Origin: a virus
DNA length: 64,000 nucleotides
Reading direction: 5' to 3' (one strand)
UHGV virus genome: UHGV-1358930
Every line of letters starts with the position of its first letter. Within the stretch, counting starts at the first letter, position 1. Positions 14,958 to 44,153 of this stretch are shown piece after piece. Under the pieces are notes generated by a model. That model did not search any database and was not told the origin of the DNA. It saw nothing but the letters and a program-made list of their open reading frames with translations. The translations under genes and the position numbers were made by a program.

Positions 14958-17672
14958 ATGAACAGAATACAGATAAATCAGAATGGAAACTACTACGAGA
15001 TAAAATTTAAATATGATCCAACTTTAGTTGCTATGATAAAGCAGATTCCTGGAAAGGAATGGAATCCGGGTGAAAAGCTTTGGAGAATTCATAAAGATAA
15101 GTTAGGAATGCTGCTGAATATGCTCAAGGGTTCTAAGTACGCAGATGCTTATGAATTACAGAGTAATGAGCAGATAGGTGAAAATGCAGAAATTGAACCT
15201 ACTACGACTATCCCGAATGTTGATTTAACTGGAATCAAGTTATTTGTCGAAGATGGCAGTAAGCTGTATCCACATCAGTTAGATTTTATGAAATATGCGA
15301 TTGATCGTCAGCGCAAAGGATACAGAAGCGGGTTTCTTTGCGCAGACGATCCCGGTTGCATCGACGGAGATGCAACAATTCGTATCAAAGAATCTGGAAA
15401 GCCGTGGACGCGTGAGACCAAATTGTCTAACGTGTACAAGTTGTTCTCAGATGGGCATGTATTCAAAGTCAAATGTATGGTTAATGACAGATTTCAATAT
15501 ATGCCAATCAAATATGTATTAGATAGAGGAAATAGATCTGTTGTTAAGGTTACGTTTGAATCCGGATACATTATCTGTACACCTGATCATGAAATATATA
15601 CAGAAAATGGATGGGTTCCTGCAGAAAGCTTGTCTACTGGAGATACAATATTTACAAATGGTGATCCTGAAAGATGTATAAACTGTGGAAGTACAGAAAA
15701 CATCATTCAGTCATCTGACGCAACCTACAAAGGATACTGCAGAAGATGCATGTATAAATTTAGAAAGTGCGGCGTGCTTGACGATGATGTAGTTGTAAAG
15801 ACCGTTGATGAAGATGGATATGTTAGATTGAAGGGTAGACCTACAAGACTATGGCCTTTGCATGACAAATCAAATGGAATGGGAATATATGAGCATCATC
15901 AGGTTTGGTATGAACACACTGGGCATATTATAGACACTAAAACTGAAGCGATTCATCACATCAATCATATCAAGACTGATAATCGATTTGAGAATTTGAA
16001 GTTATTGTCTATTTCCGAGCATGCTAAACTCCATGCTGACATGTCTACAAATCATTTGCCACAGTTTCAAGATCGAGACTTTTATTACTGCCATGGAGTA
16101 AAGACTTGGTGTGTTCCTCATTCTGAAGCCGTCTTATCTGTGGAGCCTTTTGGAACAAAACATGTATATGACATAGTAATAGATAGCGAAGATATCCATA
16201 ATTTTATTGCAAACAATGTAGTTGTACATAACTGCGGTAAGACTTTAGAGAGTATTAACTATGCAATGTACAATAAGCTATATAACAGATACAAACATTG
16301 TTTAGTCATCTGTAACGTCAATACTTCGAAGTATAACTGGCAAGATGATATCAGGAAGCATACCAATGGAAAAATGAGTGGATATATTTTAGGATCTAGA
16401 AAACGGAAACATCCGAAGCCTGGGCAAGCTATTTATATCGTAGGAAGTAGCCAAAACAAATTAGATGATCTATTGTGCGGACATATGTATGGAGATGATA
16501 CTGAACCCGAATTACCCTATTTTATCATCTTAAATGTAGAAGCTATCAGAATGAAAGTAGGAAAACGATACCCTATCGCAGATAAAATCATCGACATGAT
16601 AAATGATGGCGAACTTAATATGATTATCATTGATGAGGTACATAAAAATATGTCACCCACATCCTTACAAGGCAAGCAGATACTTAGGATAAAAGACAAA
16701 ACTCATAGTAGATGTACATGGATATCGTTAACAGGTACTCCTATCGTCAATAAACCTACAGATGTTTTCTTACCTATGCGATTGATAGATGCACACAATT
16801 TTACTAGTTACTACAAATGGTGTCAGTATTTCTGCGTATATGGAGGATACGGTGGGCATGAAGTAATTGCGTATCGAAATATTCCTAGGCTTAAATTTAT
16901 GTTACAGCAAAATATGATTCGTCGGAGAAAAGAAGATGTTTTGAATCTACCTGATAAGATTCATATGGATGTATACGTAGAAAACACTAAATACCAGTCC
17001 AGACTTGCTGAAGAAGTTACAATGGACTTGATTGCACACGCAGAAGAAATTGCAAATGATTTGAACCCTATGGTCAGATTCTTACGACTTCGTCAGGTTA
17101 ATGGATCTCCAGAATTAGTTGATCATGATCTTCGAGTAGATAACACTTATTTGAAATACAACGCAAAGTTAGTCAAGTTGTTAGAATTACTTGAGGAGAT
17201 TCACGAAAGAGGAGAGAAGACAGTTATCTTCTCCAACTGGGTCGAGCCACTTCGTACACTATTCAAATTCTTATCTTCAAAATATAAAGTATGCTGCTTT
17301 ACAGGTACAATGTCTGAATCAGAAAGACAAAAGCATAAGCGTGTGTTTATGAACAATCCTGAATACACTGTTATGATAGGCACTATTGGTGCACTTGGAA
17401 CTACTCATACATTAACTGCCGCAAACAATATCATATTTTATGACGAGCCCTGGACATACGCAGATAAATTACAAGCAGAAGATAGATGCCATCGAATTTC
17501 GGCAAAAAAGTCCGTTAATGTATATACACTTATTTCTAAAGATACAATTGACGAACGAGTACATGATATAGTGTATAGCAAGAAAGACACATCGGATTAT
17601 TTAGTTGACAACAAGCTTGACTTCAAAAACAATCCAAATCTAGTTGCTACACTACTAGGTAAAGACATCTGA
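14958..17672 (+). CDS. SNF2-family (SF2) helicase precursor containing an intein.
   Basis: The split motif I (LYPHQ...CADDPG|CGKT), the DEVH box (IIIDEVH) and C-terminal helicase motifs (AEDRCHRI) are all present. Residues 134-425 interrupt the P-loop. Confidence 0.65.
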   Translation: MNRIQINQNGNYYEIKFKYDPTLVAMIKQIPGKEWNPGEKLWRIHKDKLGMLLNMLKGSKYADAYELQSNEQIGENAEIEPTTTIPNVDLTGIKLFVEDGSKLYPHQLDFMKYAIDRQRKGYRSGFLCADDPGCIDGDATIRIKESGKPWTRETKLSNVYKLFSDGHVFKVKCMVNDRFQYMPIKYVLDRGNRSVVKVTFESGYIICTPDHEIYTENGWVPAESLSTGDTIFTNGDPERCINCGSTENIIQSSDATYKGYCRRCMYKFRKCGVLDDDVVVKTVDEDGYVRLKGRPTRLWPLHDKSNGMGIYEHHQVWYEHTGHIIDTKTEAIHHINHIKTDNRFENLKLLSISEHAKLHADMSTNHLPQFQDRDFYYCHGVKTWCVPHSEAVLSVEPFGTKHVYDIVIDSEDIHNFIANNVVVHNCGKTLESINYAMYNKLYNRYKHCLVICNVNTSKYNWQDDIRKHTNGKMSGYILGSRKRKHPKPGQAIYIVGSSQNKLDDLLCGHMYGDDTEPELPYFIILNVEAIRMKVGKRYPIADKIIDMINDGELNMIIIDEVHKNMSPTSLQGKQILRIKDKTHSRCTWISLTGTPIVNKPTDVFLPMRLIDAHNFTSYYKWCQYFCVYGGYGGHEVIAYRNIPRLKFMLQQNMIRRRKEDVLNLPDKIHMDVYVENTKYQSRLAEEVTMDLIAHAEEIANDLNPMVRFLRLRQVNGSPELVDHDLRVDNTYLKYNAKLVKLLELLEEIHERGEKTVIFSNWVEPLRTLFKFLSSKYKVCCFTGTMSESERQKHKRVFMNNPEYTVMIGTIGALGTTHTLTAANNIIFYDEPWTYADKLQAEDRCHRISAKKSVNVYTLISKDTIDERVHDIVYSKKDTSDYLVDNKLDFKNNPNLVATLLGKDI
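15357..16232 (+). other. Intein of 292 aa containing an HNH_3-type homing endonuclease and a zinc finger, inserted in the helicase Walker A loop.
   Basis: The insert starts at Cys (G|CIDGDATI) and contains block B (TPDHEIYT). Its HNH motif is HHINHIKTDNRFENLKLLSISEHAKLH. It ends VVVHN followed by the extein Cys (CGKT). Confidence 0.6.
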
Positions 17673-17682
17673 GGAGGACAAC

Positions 17683-18483
17683 ATGAGCAATACTAAACTT
17701 ACTAATCTAGAACTTGCGTCTGACGAATTAAGATTAGCTACAGACATTATTAACAAACATAATTTGAAACAATCAGAACTTAAATCGGCATTAGACACAA
17801 CTCTGCGTGATATCGTGAATAACAGTGATCTTAGTTTTGGTACGGTTAATTGTACTTATGAGGTCAGCCCAGATATGAATTGGATCTATTTTTATATGGG
17901 GTTGATCACACTCAAAATCATACCGAATGTTTGGCTAGATGACAACGTCAGATGTGAACTTCTGTACTCTGTCAATCAGTGCCTAGCTCTGCCGATTGCT
18001 GAAGATCTGACAAATTGCAATATCTTGATAGAGCTTGTGAGCAATTCTGATATTTCTGAGGTTATTTTGGCTTACAAACAATGTGTGAATGATCCAGAAT
18101 ATTTAGATGCGCTGAACAACATTGACCGACTTAATAAATCGTACCTGGACGATGCTCGAAAGTCTGAATTTGATCGAGTTAGCTACACAGTTGATCGTCA
18201 CACGGGTATTGGAGTATTTGTCAGTAAGAATTCTAGCAAACTAGCTGGATATGCGTTTATTCTGTATAGGAACTCAAAGGATGTTTGCTACAAATTTGTC
18301 CCTATTCAGATGATCAAAAACATCTTGAATATACATACTCAATCTGAGCTCAAAACTATTCAATCTATACTTGAAAATATTAGAGTATCAACCTTAGGTA
18401 TAAACGAGTTCATTGAAACTATCTATTTAAAGAATGAACGAGCTAAGCTGTATACACTTCCGGATGATCTAAGTATAGATTGA
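17683..18483 (+). CDS. Hypothetical protein.
   Basis: GAGGAGG ribosome-binding site before a 266 aa ORF. Confidence 0.4.
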   Translation: MSNTKLTNLELASDELRLATDIINKHNLKQSELKSALDTTLRDIVNNSDLSFGTVNCTYEVSPDMNWIYFYMGLITLKIIPNVWLDDNVRCELLYSVNQCLALPIAEDLTNCNILIELVSNSDISEVILAYKQCVNDPEYLDALNNIDRLNKSYLDDARKSEFDRVSYTVDRHTGIGVFVSKNSSKLAGYAFILYRNSKDVCYKFVPIQMIKNILNIHTQSELKTIQSILENIRVSTLGINEFIETIYLKNERAKLYTLPDDLSID

Positions 18484-18732: not shown

Positions 18733-19536
18733 ATGAAAATTACATGTAACAGACGAGACGATATTCTGAAACGCAAACAGGAATACGAATCAGATCGAGC
18801 AAAGCGTCAGGCTAAGTATGATGAAGAGTATAAAGCTTGGAGAGACGAAGAACGCGGTCGCGGACAGTTTCTAGAGAAAGCAGTTATTCGTGCTATTGGC
18901 AGCACCTCTCTAGATCTTACAATAGATGTAGGTATGCGCTTTGGAACCGGTTATAGAATTCGTGTTTCTGATGAAGACAACAAGTTTGATGAAGATAAAG
19001 CTCTCTCGTGGACATGGGAGGTTTCTTTGGACAATAACGGAGACGTCAAGAAAGAATCGTCATCTTGGTCTGGTATGAAAGCAGTTACAGCCAATAACAT
19101 AAACAATCTGAAAGAAATTGTAAGAGTATTAGAGATTTTGAACAATATTGATTTTAAGACGATGCTCAATCGTGTTACTCCTCCGAATCCTGAAGACTAT
19201 ATTACCGGACCTAGTCCTAAGTATGAAACAGCTCCTGATTTTGATAAGGAACTCATGGAGGCTGATGTTGAAGATTGTATTGGCACCCGAAAAGGCATTC
19301 TAGGGACTTACAGCAAAATATATCGTGGAGATGTTTATCATTTCATTCAGAGAGAAACTCCAGCTAGTTATACAGTATGGGACATTCCGGCATACTATGT
19401 AGAAAATCATGACGGATCTCTATCTGATTTGTATGAAACATATTATGCTAAGCGTGATAGTTATACTTACACTATAAGAAAGAACACATTCTTTGAAACA
19501 ATTGAACAGAATGTTACGATTGTAGATTTTAGTTGA
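18733..19536 (+). CDS. Hypothetical protein.
   Basis: A GGAGG ribosome-binding site is present. Confidence 0.4.
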   Translation: MKITCNRRDDILKRKQEYESDRAKRQAKYDEEYKAWRDEERGRGQFLEKAVIRAIGSTSLDLTIDVGMRFGTGYRIRVSDEDNKFDEDKALSWTWEVSLDNNGDVKKESSSWSGMKAVTANNINNLKEIVRVLEILNNIDFKTMLNRVTPPNPEDYITGPSPKYETAPDFDKELMEADVEDCIGTRKGILGTYSKIYRGDVYHFIQRETPASYTVWDIPAYYVENHDGSLSDLYETYYAKRDSYTYTIRKNTFFETIEQNVTIVDFS

Positions 19537-19580
19537 GATAACTCATATAAACGATATTGTTAGTAAGGTGGTTAAGTAAT

Positions 19581-20417
19581 ATGGCCAAAATAACACACGG
19601 AACTCCGGAGCAATTTCTGAATGCTCTAGAGAATAAAATTCAAGAACTCGGTGGAAATGTTCAAGATGATGTTACTTCCGCAGTAGAAACTGAGGATGAT
19701 AAGGAAAGATACATTCATACATTGATTGGAGACATTCAATCAGAATTCATAGGTACAGTAGATTCTATGAAGTTTGATACTATGGATGACTCCCTCATCA
19801 TCACAGTTGTACTTGGAAATAAAGTGAGAGAATTTTCAGTTCCTTATTCGGATCTTAAATTTGATTGGAACAATATTGATGAAGATACTCAATACATTTC
19901 TAATGAAATTGATGAAGAGTTCAACAGAGAATATATTGATGATACTATCATTGAATCTAACGTAGATTCTGCGTCATCTAGATTCAATAAAGTTCTAGGG
20001 TCTGCAGATTACTATGATCATCCTAAATATTCAAAAACATTGTATTTGCCTTCAACTCGTCAAGGAAAGGTTAAACTGACCATAGGAACATTTAGCGATC
20101 CAAGTTATGACGATGATCATACGTTTGAAATCTTAGCTATAGTAGATGTAGAATCTCGTCGAATTGATTTTACTCTCGACTCTGAAAAGCTGTATGAAAC
20201 AGTAGATATACGTGACGGTCATGAAAAATTATCCGGATATGACGACAGATATGATGATCCGGAAGTTACAGTAGATGAAATTTATGAATACTTTATGACC
20301 TTAGATCAAGATGATGTTGATGATACGATAATAGAATTAGCTGATGATTTTGATGTTAATCGAGTTAAGCAGCTGTTTGGACCGATAACTGCGTCATCTA
20401 GATTCAACAAGGTTTAA
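19581..20417 (+). CDS. Acidic protein, paralog A of 20722-21603, with an internal ASSRFNKV repeat.
   Basis: AAGGTGG ribosome-binding site. The N-terminus MAKITHGTPEQFLNAL is shared with the paralog. Confidence 0.45.
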   Translation: MAKITHGTPEQFLNALENKIQELGGNVQDDVTSAVETEDDKERYIHTLIGDIQSEFIGTVDSMKFDTMDDSLIITVVLGNKVREFSVPYSDLKFDWNNIDEDTQYISNEIDEEFNREYIDDTIIESNVDSASSRFNKVLGSADYYDHPKYSKTLYLPSTRQGKVKLTIGTFSDPSYDDDHTFEILAIVDVESRRIDFTLDSEKLYETVDIRDGHEKLSGYDDRYDDPEVTVDEIYEYFMTLDQDDVDDTIIELADDFDVNRVKQLFGPITASSRFNKV

Positions 20418-20721
20418 TCCGCTACTATGAAGTATCTAGATCAAGACGTAGAAGAGTACGTATTGTCAGAGTTAAAACAGATGAAAATGGCATATCATCA
20501 TGATATGCCATTTGATGAATAGTTAAGAGAGCCAATCAGAAATGGATATATTTTCGAATCTTACTAACAGATAAGAAATGACATCTTAGGCAAGAAATCT
20601 AAAAACTTCGTCTTTATTTAGATAAGTCGGAAATTTTTATCTGATGATATTACACGCTGACGTTAAGGATCTAGTAATGGTAAATATTGTTAACTAATAT
20701 CGATTTCAGCAAATAACAGAG

Positions 20722-42960: not shown

Positions 42961-43173
42961 ATGAAAATATTAAGATGTCCTGTATGCAATTCAAAAATCG
43001 TTATTTTACACGATATAGATACTAGATTTGACGAAATCCGATATCGTATACTTTGTTCAGATTACAGCTGTGTAATCAACGATGTATGCGCTTCTAGTTC
43101 AACTAAATTAGGTGCATATAAATTATGGATAGCAATGAGGAGATGGGTCTTACGTGATCACAGAGGAAATTGA
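42961..43173 (+). CDS. Small zinc-ribbon protein.
   Basis: GAGGTGA ribosome-binding site. The N-terminus carries CPVCNSK. Confidence 0.35.
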   Translation: MKILRCPVCNSKIVILHDIDTRFDEIRYRILCSDYSCVINDVCASSSTKLGAYKLWIAMRRWVLRDHRGN

Positions 43174-43663
43174 AGTATGGAAAGACATTCCAGGTTATGT
43201 GAGCTATCAAGCTTCAAGCTTAGGTAGAATTCGTCAATCGTTGCCAAACAGCAACTACAAATACCTAAAGCCCAGTATGACGACAGATGGATATTTAACA
43301 GTACACGTAGTAGGATGTCCGCTTAGATATCCAACAGTTGCTAAACTAGTTTGCTTAGCATTTCATGGACACTCTTCGCTTGATATTATTCATCCCGTTG
43401 TAGATCACATAAACAATAATTCAACAGATAATCGACCGGAAAATTTAAGATGGATATCACAAAGAGAGAACGTCAATCAAGCAATTAAGTACAGAATAGG
43501 TAAATGCCAAATACGATGCAAAGAAATAGGCGAAATATTTGATTCTATTTCTGCAGCGAGTAAGCAGCTTAGCATTCGTTACTATTCGATATATAACAAT
43601 CTGAGGAATAATATTCCAACGCATGGATTATCATTTGAAAGGATAGAAAAGGCAGATGGCTGA
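43154..43663 (+). CDS. HNH homing endonuclease with an N-terminal NUMOD4-like region, an HNH_3 core and a C-terminal DNA-binding domain.
   Basis: Motifs WKDIPGY..YQASSLGRIR, VDHINNNSTDNRPENLRW and a C-terminal V.C.E.G..F.S...A.K are present. Confidence 0.6.
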   Translation: MITEEIEVWKDIPGYVSYQASSLGRIRQSLPNSNYKYLKPSMTTDGYLTVHVVGCPLRYPTVAKLVCLAFHGHSSLDIIHPVVDHINNNSTDNRPENLRWISQRENVNQAIKYRIGKCQIRCKEIGEIFDSISAASKQLSIRYYSIYNNLRNNIPTHGLSFERIEKADG

Positions 43664-44153
43664 AGAAATATGGAAAGACATCCCGAATTATACACCGTAT
43701 CAAGCTTCTTCATTAGGTAACATCCGAATGAAACTGACTGACGGTTCATTTAAGCTACTCAAGCCGTTCTTAAACATGGATGGTTACTATCAAGTAGCTG
43801 TCAAGAACTGTCCTACAAAACTACCTAACCTTCACAGGCTTGTAGCTTTTGCGTTTCATGGTGTACCAGAAACTAGGATGGTAGTAGATCATTTGAATAA
43901 CATACATACTGATAATAGACCTGAAAATCTAGAATGGGTTACGCAGAAAGAAAATATGCGAAGGGCGAAGGTGATGGGACTGTATGCTAAGAAAACAAAA
44001 ATCAAATGCGTAGAAGACAACATCATCTATGAATCTATCGCAGACTGCGCGAAGAAAACAGGTATTCGACCTGCAAGTTTGTGGAGTACTACAAGAGACG
44101 GTACAGCAATTCATGGTAAACATTATATAAGAATTGAGCAAGAAAATATCTAA
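43656..44153 (+). CDS. HNH homing endonuclease, a tandem paralog of 43154.
   Basis: Motifs WKDIPNY..YQASSLGNIR and VDHLNNIHTDNRPENLEW are present. It overlaps the upstream gene by 8 nt. Confidence 0.6.
   Translation: MAEEIWKDIPNYTPYQASSLGNIRMKLTDGSFKLLKPFLNMDGYYQVAVKNCPTKLPNLHRLVAFAFHGVPETRMVVDHLNNIHTDNRPENLEWVTQKENMRRAKVMGLYAKKTKIKCVEDNIIYESIADCAKKTGIRPASLWSTTRDGTAIHGKHYIRIEQENI

Follow-up and report, generated by a model that had tools for sequence, protein, structure and literature searches.

Dalgaard et al. 1997 are cited (PMC5050341, PMC8966425) for the first report of inteins that carry an HNH endonuclease instead of a LAGLIDADG one. Of all inteins, about 70% reside in ATP-binding proteins, in which the P-loop is a favoured place and the ‘classic’ position lies between its invariant Lys and Thr (PMC5050341, PMC4760082). 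SNF2/HepA helicases are in the top 15 of bacterial intein hosts, with 15 inteins (PMC4760082), a class-3 intein has been studied in Snf2 of Deinococcus radiodurans (Brace 2010, cited in PMC7765530), and ‘HEL’ inteins have been described in mycobacteriophages (PMC5050341). Here, we analyse an insert that interrupts the Walker A loop of an SNF2 helicase encoded by UHGV virus genome UHGV-1358930, of which a stretch of 64,000 nucleotides (nt), hereafter the window, was studied. The bearer is an uncultivated phage of the human gut, of about 160 kb. Very probably, the insert is a class-1 intein that has a C4 zinc finger and an HNH_3 nuclease set into its Hint domain and that both splices and homes.

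An insert in the Walker A loop

The helicase precursor is encoded by an open reading frame (ORF) on the plus strand (14958-17672), which is intact over all its 904 codons and corresponds to a protein of 904 amino acids (aa). The insert occupies helicase residues 134-425, residue 134 beginning at 15357 and residue 425 ending at 16232, with GYRSGFLCADDPG|CIDGDATIRIKE (CADDPG|CIDGD) at the N junction and FIANNVVVHN|CGKTLESINY at the C junction. When these 292 aa are taken out, a 612-aa protein remains, in which the P-loop reads DDPGCGKT. An earlier note, made from the sequence of the window, had already proposed an HNH-type intein here, and its coordinates, its junctions, the length of its insert and the regenerated motif I are all exact. 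The parts of the gene are the following:

14958..15356, plus strand: N-extein, helicase residues 1-133, up to FLCADDPG (first half of Walker A/motif I)
15357..16232, plus strand: predicted intein, complete, class-1, 292 aa (Cys1-Asn292), continuing the reading frame of the helicase
15357..15656, plus strand: Hint domain, N-terminal half (intein residues 1-100), including Cys1 as well as T75-P-D77-H78 of block B
15675..15749, plus strand: C4 zinc finger, C107-x2-C110-x17-C128-x2-C131 (intein residues 107-131)
15795..16034, plus strand: HNH_3 nuclease domain, I-HmuI-like, intein residues ~147-226, with H200, H201, N209, N213, H222 and H226
16080..16232, plus strand: Hint domain, C-terminal half (intein residues 242-292), including D272 and H281-N282-F283 of block F as well as V290-H291-N292 of block G
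16233..17672, plus strand: C-extein, beginning with Cys+1-GKT (which completes Walker A) and comprising the remaining SNF2 ATPase core, Helicase_C and the stop

Within the intein, the nuclease and the C-terminal half of the Hint domain are separated by a linker of lower confidence. Searched alone against Pfam, the insert matched Intein_splicing (E 2.2e-10, 41.0 bits for a cut-off of 35.8) and HNH_3 (E 2.5e-10, 40.3 bits for a cut-off of 24.8). Against PDB, phmmer retrieved the mini-inteins Spl DnaX, Mtu RecA and NrdJ-1 (E 8e-8 to 7e-5), the matches falling in two separate blocks, an N-terminal one (residues 46-99) and a C-terminal one (residues 258-292), as is to be expected when a Hint domain is itself split by an insert. 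In the predicted structure, the Hint fold expected of a class-1 intein is modelled at a pLDDT above 90. The Hint domain on which the earlier note had staked its reading was thus recovered with significance from both Pfam and PDB, the endonuclease belongs to HNH_3 and not to LAGLIDADG, as it had said, and the motifs it quoted (TPDHEIYT, DGYVRLKG, HHINHIKTDNRFENLKLL, HAKLH and the CxxC...CxxC formed by C107, C110, C128 and C131) are all present.

Conservation was evaluated over 32 relatives sharing 32-61% identity with the window intein, residues being regarded as conserved when invariant or found in at least 90% of them. The splicing residues C1, T75, D77, H78, D272, H281-N282-F283, V290-H291-N292 and Cys+1 are conserved; Cys1, in particular, is present in ≥90% of these relatives and in almost all of the 168 junctions described below, while the +1 residue, Cys in the window, is Cys or, rarely, Ser in the relatives. 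The insert therefore features the N-terminal nucleophile (Cys1), the TxxH of block B, the blocks F and G ending in His-Asn, and the +1 Cys that define class 1. The zinc cysteines (C107, C110, C128, C131) are invariant or nearly so, and the HNH residues (H200, H201, N209, N213, H222, H226), which compose a beta-beta-alpha-metal motif, are conserved as well. The zinc finger is probably a DNA-binding module. A phmmer search of PDB with the zinc finger and HNH segment yielded nothing significant (a GATA finger at E 3.8), so that the resemblance to GATA fingers is in spacing only.

Other assignments were considered and rejected. A class-3 intein does not fit, since the WCT signature is lacking (Ile80 at B12, Asp272 at F4, Val290 at G5) and Cys1 is present. 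A split intein or fractured gene is ruled out for the window by its one continuous ORF, and a group I intron by the continuous reading frame and the Hint fold.

Concerning the host protein, the whole sequence matched SNF2-rel_dom (65.3 bits) and Helicase_C (56.4 bits) in Pfam; it thus combines the ATPase core and the Helicase_C domain of the SNF2 family, and its spliced motif I (DDPGCGKT) aligns with DEQGLGKT. At the N-terminus (14997-15092, helicase residues 14-45), a weak HARP match lies below the Pfam cut-off (E 0.0021), and a HARP match is also precomputed for the relatives P0092 and P0121; the helicase may be a HARP-SNF2 (SMARCAL1-like) annealing helicase. The NCBI copy of the protein (DAY85007.1) is labelled just ‘Chromatin remodeling complex ATPase’, with the intein left unannotated, an annotation that the present assignment corrects.

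Intein-free alleles and relatives at the same site

The spliced helicase aligns without gaps over motif I to those of Bacillus phage Flasso, Clostridium phage phiCTP1 and Streptococcus phage Dp-1, in which FLLADEQGLGKT stands opposite FLCADDPGCGKT (FLCADDPG|CGKT) of the spliced protein. With the unspliced protein, MAFFT put the N-extein into the intein, and the alignment was therefore made with the spliced sequence. Closer to the window, we found at least 85 distinct helicases of sister phages, 92-99% identical to the exteins and 612 or 613 aa long (for a predicted spliced length of 612), in which the site is empty and reads CADDPG-L-GKTIES or CADDPG-M-GKTIES. Like the three phage helicases, these alleles have no residues across the insertion, as the earlier note had expected of related helicases. 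Two of the sister genomes (L009 and L010) share ~95% DNA identity with the window over ~20 kb, and their helicase gene differs from that of the window by a single clean 876-bp indel, the empty DNA site being GACGATCCCGGC|TTAGGAAAGACGATAGAA (in L010 …GACGATCCCGGCTTAGGAAAGACGATAGAAAGT…). The insertion in this conserved host motif is thus precise and in frame, and intein-free homologues exist. The 904-aa form is also common, with 55 sequences in its 90% cluster, on contigs of up to ~167 kb from human-gut samples. Since sister alleles with and without the intein are both common, the intein is polymorphic within one phage species.

Two claims of the earlier note need qualification. It had called the location a classic intein insertion site: the insertion is indeed in the P-loop, but its point, G|xGKT, precedes the classic K|T site (PMC5050341) by two residues. 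It had also read the Cys after the C junction as the first residue of a helicase CGKT; this Cys is present, but it is not native, for the +1 residue of intein-free alleles is Leu or Met, neither of which is nucleophilic. An intein copied alone would give a protein unable to splice, which means that the Cys+1 codon must come along.

An exhaustive search with HMMER, which covered 1.84 billion cluster representatives, returned 4514 proteins at E < 1e-3, 276 at E < 1e-10 and 82 at E < 1e-30; by comparison, a word-index protein search with the intein alone found just 2 matches, a figure that reflects the sensitivity limit of that search. Among 168 end-to-end intein matches, almost all are located at D[ED]xG|C...HN|CGK[TS]. 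The same intein occupies the same site in more than 150 clusters (at 50% identity) of metagenomic SNF2 helicases, including helicases for which the full-length identity to the window protein is just 48-58%. When six of the longest and most unusual matches were submitted to Pfam, five proved to be SNF2 helicases with Intein_splicing and HNH_3, and the sixth a multi-intein DNA polymerase III alpha subunit. A polymerase subunit of this kind (P0245, 2788 aa), retrieved by the intein search, has the PHP, DNA_pol3_alpha and finger domains; it contains Intein_splicing five times, together with HNH and, at the C-terminus, a UDG domain. Derivatives devoid of the nuclease also exist at the helicase site: P0121 retains the first CxxC only, and P0192 and P0002 are reduced to mini-inteins (143-156 aa). 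The classical homing cycle has these as its stages: an empty site, a full intein and a mini-intein. Among the phages of GenBank, a megablast search with the helicase gene gave no match, and a tblastn search with the intein gave three weak matches limited to the HNH part, without any close relative in cultured-phage records.

Some of the relatives depart from this arrangement. P0114 (1011 aa), the exteins of which share 69% identity with the window helicase, bears an intein of another type, ~399 aa long and with a LAGLIDADG_3 domain, at the classic site GLGK|TIES, two residues downstream. This intein begins with Ala and shows Trp, Cys and Thr at B12, F4 and G5 (positions assigned by eye), and thus looks like a class-3 intein, as far as these residues can tell. 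Together with the HNH intein of the window, it indicates that two unrelated inteins target one P-loop in this helicase family. In a Logan contig (DRR452108; L007:1-2413, corresponding to the relative P0001), the same HNH intein lies in the P-loop, and a second break in the helicase follows motif II (DEIHLN|): the ORF of the N-intein stops at 1353, a free-standing DUF559 ORF of 282 aa follows (1346-2194), and a new ORF starts from a Met near 2164 (MAKLISKK...ILVHN|CSPSSLQGK). We take this arrangement to resemble the published ‘fractured gene’, in which the endonuclease gene stands free between the halves of a split intein. Finally, a mini-intein of ~143 aa without HNH is found at the P-loop site in L004:5649-7796, as well as in L005 and L006 (relative P0002). 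There, the helicase is spread over four different reading frames, and one frameshift is due to an extra C one codon ahead of Cys1 (GAGCAA-C-GGTTGT), identical in three independent assemblies; judging from these sequences, the gene would be either decaying or recoded.

Probable homing and alternative explanations

To characterize the flanks of the insertion, four alleles with the intein (the window, L011, L013 and L014) were compared to three without it (L009, L010 and L012), and the following feature was delineated:

16233..16361, plus strand: intein-linked 3' flank and putative co-conversion tract, with fixed differences and a divergent synonymous tract from +41 to +128

Fixed differences between the two groups are found at +1, +5, +11 and +12 (+2 differs too, but varies inside each group), and the changes in the flank result in Cys+1 and in an Ile-to-Leu replacement at the fifth residue past the junction. 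The same signature (CGKTL) is shared by distant intein-bearing helicases, the intein-free ones having LGKTI. Further downstream, ~20 synonymous differences between +41 and +128 occur in alleles with the intein only; the window and L013 have this tract in full, L014 has only its +59 to +104 part, and L011 lacks it. In total, 24 sites differ from the intein-free alleles over the first 130 nt 3' of the intein, for a background of 4.6-5.2% (p about 1e-8), while divergence 5' of the intein is at background. Two traits expected of homing in a population are thus observed, i.e., the coexistence of intein-bearing and intein-free alleles at ~95% DNA identity and an intein-linked 3' flank. We read the divergent 3' flank as a co-conversion tract brought in with the intein and later apparently eroded by recombination, and its 3' bias suggests that the HNH nuclease would cut downstream of the insertion point.

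According to the conserved residues, the most likely mechanism would associate class-1 splicing, restoring the Walker A loop, with HNH-driven homing and 3' co-conversion. After translation, Cys1 would form a thioester, which would be attacked by Cys+1, before the cyclisation of Asn292 frees the intein and the exteins ligate, giving a helicase of 612 aa, the P-loop of which (DDPGCGKT) is intact. In the case of co-infection, the zinc finger and HNH module would recognise, then nick or cut, intein-free helicase alleles, and repair off the intein-bearing genome would copy the intein and also its 3' flank, over about 13 nt or more. This flank would be obligatory, as the source of the Cys+1 codon for Leu or Met recipients. 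The intermediate frequency of the intein in the phage population, along with the loss of the nuclease in some lineages, is what one would expect of such a homing cycle, and the intein is probably still mobile.

Several observations weigh against an intein that splices and homes as described. The sample of flanks is small, just four alleles with the intein and three without at the DNA level; among the former, the 3' tract forms a mosaic, part of which could be due to ordinary recombination instead of homing; the GC content of the intein (0.371) equals that of the host gene (0.356-0.378), which means that composition gives no signal of a recent arrival (a foreign origin inferred from composition is rejected on the same ground); and the confidence of the structural model is lower in the zinc finger and linker regions (pLDDT 58-78). 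The mosaic tract, down to L011 and its +1 to +12 changes alone, and the GC content would equally suit an intein that still splices and no longer homes, the nuclease being a relic or repurposed and the polymorphism resulting from vertical descent combined with ordinary recombination or precise deletion, all the more as the mini-intein derivatives show that this family can lose its nuclease. Yet, the near-invariance of the HNH and zinc cysteine residues at 32-61% identity points to purifying selection on the nuclease, polymorphism is seen among genomes of ~95% DNA identity, and occupancy of the same site in helicases only 48-58% identical is hard to explain without site-specific mobility. On balance, we regard the loss of homing as improbable.

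That the insert might instead be a permanent domain that does not splice, or a disruptive insertion, in a helicase that either works with it or has become a pseudogene, is suggested by the in-frame homing insertions other than inteins known in phage genes, such as the ShiLan domain with its hidden HNH (PMC11855218), and by the frameshifted helicase of the relative lineage L004-L006. Nevertheless, we give this explanation hardly any credit, since 292 aa within GxGKT would wreck the P-loop unless removed, all class-1 splicing residues are present and conserved in a confidently predicted Hint fold, the ORF is intact, and the C-extein is 92-99% conserved with intein-free alleles. Homing and splicing could also be accompanied by a regulatory role, the intein acting as a conditional switch: by way of Cys1, Cys+1 and the C4 finger, redox state or zinc would govern splicing and hence the ATPase activity of the helicase. 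P-loops are where inteins tend to cluster, and control of splicing by oxidative stress or zinc is documented for mycobacterial DnaB inteins (PMC4760082, PMC6195587, PMC7360933), while the window intein has a Cys at both junctions plus a zinc site; in spite of this, most sister phages are intein-free, which shows that the intein is dispensable, and such a switch appears quite unlikely. We retain a class-1 intein that splices and homes as the most probable explanation.

Differences between intein copies are themselves clustered. Over the last ~90 nt of the intein (16105-16196, intein nt 749-840), the window differs at 13 sites from the three other intein-bearing alleles, which are mutually identical there, and L011 shows a similar cluster at intein nt 37-132, while the HNH core differs far less (about 3-8 sites per pair). 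This pattern suggests possible recombination between intein variants.

Genome context and comparison with known systems

A search of the window with the intein-family profile revealed no second intein, the only matches being two free-standing HNH genes:

43154-43663, plus strand: free-standing homing-endonuclease-like gene, NUMOD4 and HNH_3, 169 aa (Pfam)
43656-44153, plus strand: free-standing homing-endonuclease-like gene, NUMOD4 and HNH_3, 165 aa (Pfam), overlapping the former in tandem

The earlier note had assigned these genes and the intein nuclease to one class. They do exist and share the Pfam HNH_3 catalytic family within one genome, but a closer kinship is not borne out: their similarity to the intein nuclease is marginal (32% over 77 aa, E 0.002; E 5e-6 and 9e-5 with the intein-family profile), and they are independent genes featuring NUMOD4, whereas the intein has a C4 zinc finger and is embedded in its host protein.

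Around the helicase gene, the sister genomes differ in content. In L014, from a human gut metagenome (ERZ920773), a TnpB gene (L014:4342-5598; OrfB_IS605 and Cas12f1-like_TNB, 418 aa) directly follows the intein-bearing helicase, while the equivalent place of the window is without TnpB and holds a 266-aa ORF (17683-18483). Further on, ~2-3 kb downstream of the helicase gene (~19500-20700 in the window), lies a variable region with sharp divergence or indels relative to sister genomes, the onset of which is at ~19520 in L010 and ~20270 in L009.

Current understanding of inteins is unchanged by this finding, the interest of which lies elsewhere. It is conceivable, though in our opinion doubtful, that the window intein is the first recognised member of a large uncatalogued family (Hint, a C4 finger with GATA spacing and an I-HmuI-like HNH_3) inhabiting the SNF2 G|xGKT site of uncultivated phages and carrying its own +1 Cys by obligatory 3' co-conversion, so that homing would be seen in action in human-gut phages. 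If true, this would provide a natural system for studying the homing of HNH inteins, which has never been characterised, including the alternative between nicking and double-strand cutting and the asymmetry of the conversion tract; HNH inteins are indeed far less studied than LAGLIDADG ones. Moreover, a single family of gut-phage helicases offers a natural series for homing in the wild, with the empty site, the full HNH intein, the mini-intein, a neighbouring LAGLIDADG intein and a split intein. Finally, a compact class-1 intein of 292 aa with a Cys at both junctions might interest protein engineers.

Regarding known systems, the window intein shares its host protein family with the SNF2/HepA inteins, and inteins are already documented both for SNF2 helicases and for P-loops. 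The D. radiodurans Snf2 intein is given as class 3 by the citing source; in contrast, the window intein is placed in class 1 by its Cys1, together with Ile, Asp and Val at B12, F4 and G5, respectively. The PI-SceI, PI-PfuI and Tli/Pho VMA inteins have a nested LAGLIDADG nuclease, whereas that of the window combines HNH_3 with a C4 zinc finger, and an HNH domain is described for none of the matched intein structures. I-HmuI, an extended multi-module DNA binder, is the HNH nicking enzyme of Bacillus phage SPO1 (PDB 1u3e) and stands free in a group I intron, while the HNH of the window (only 13% identical to it) is embedded in a Hint domain along with a zinc finger. The likeness to the HNH-family inteins of Dalgaard et al. 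1997, compared by their description in citing papers only, resides in the replacement of LAGLIDADG by an HNH endonuclease. Altogether, the intein is of a known kind, for HNH inteins, SNF2 inteins and P-loop insertions are all documented; less usual are the lack of a close relative in cultured-phage records, the zinc-finger accessory, the imported +1 nucleophile and the G|xGKT site.

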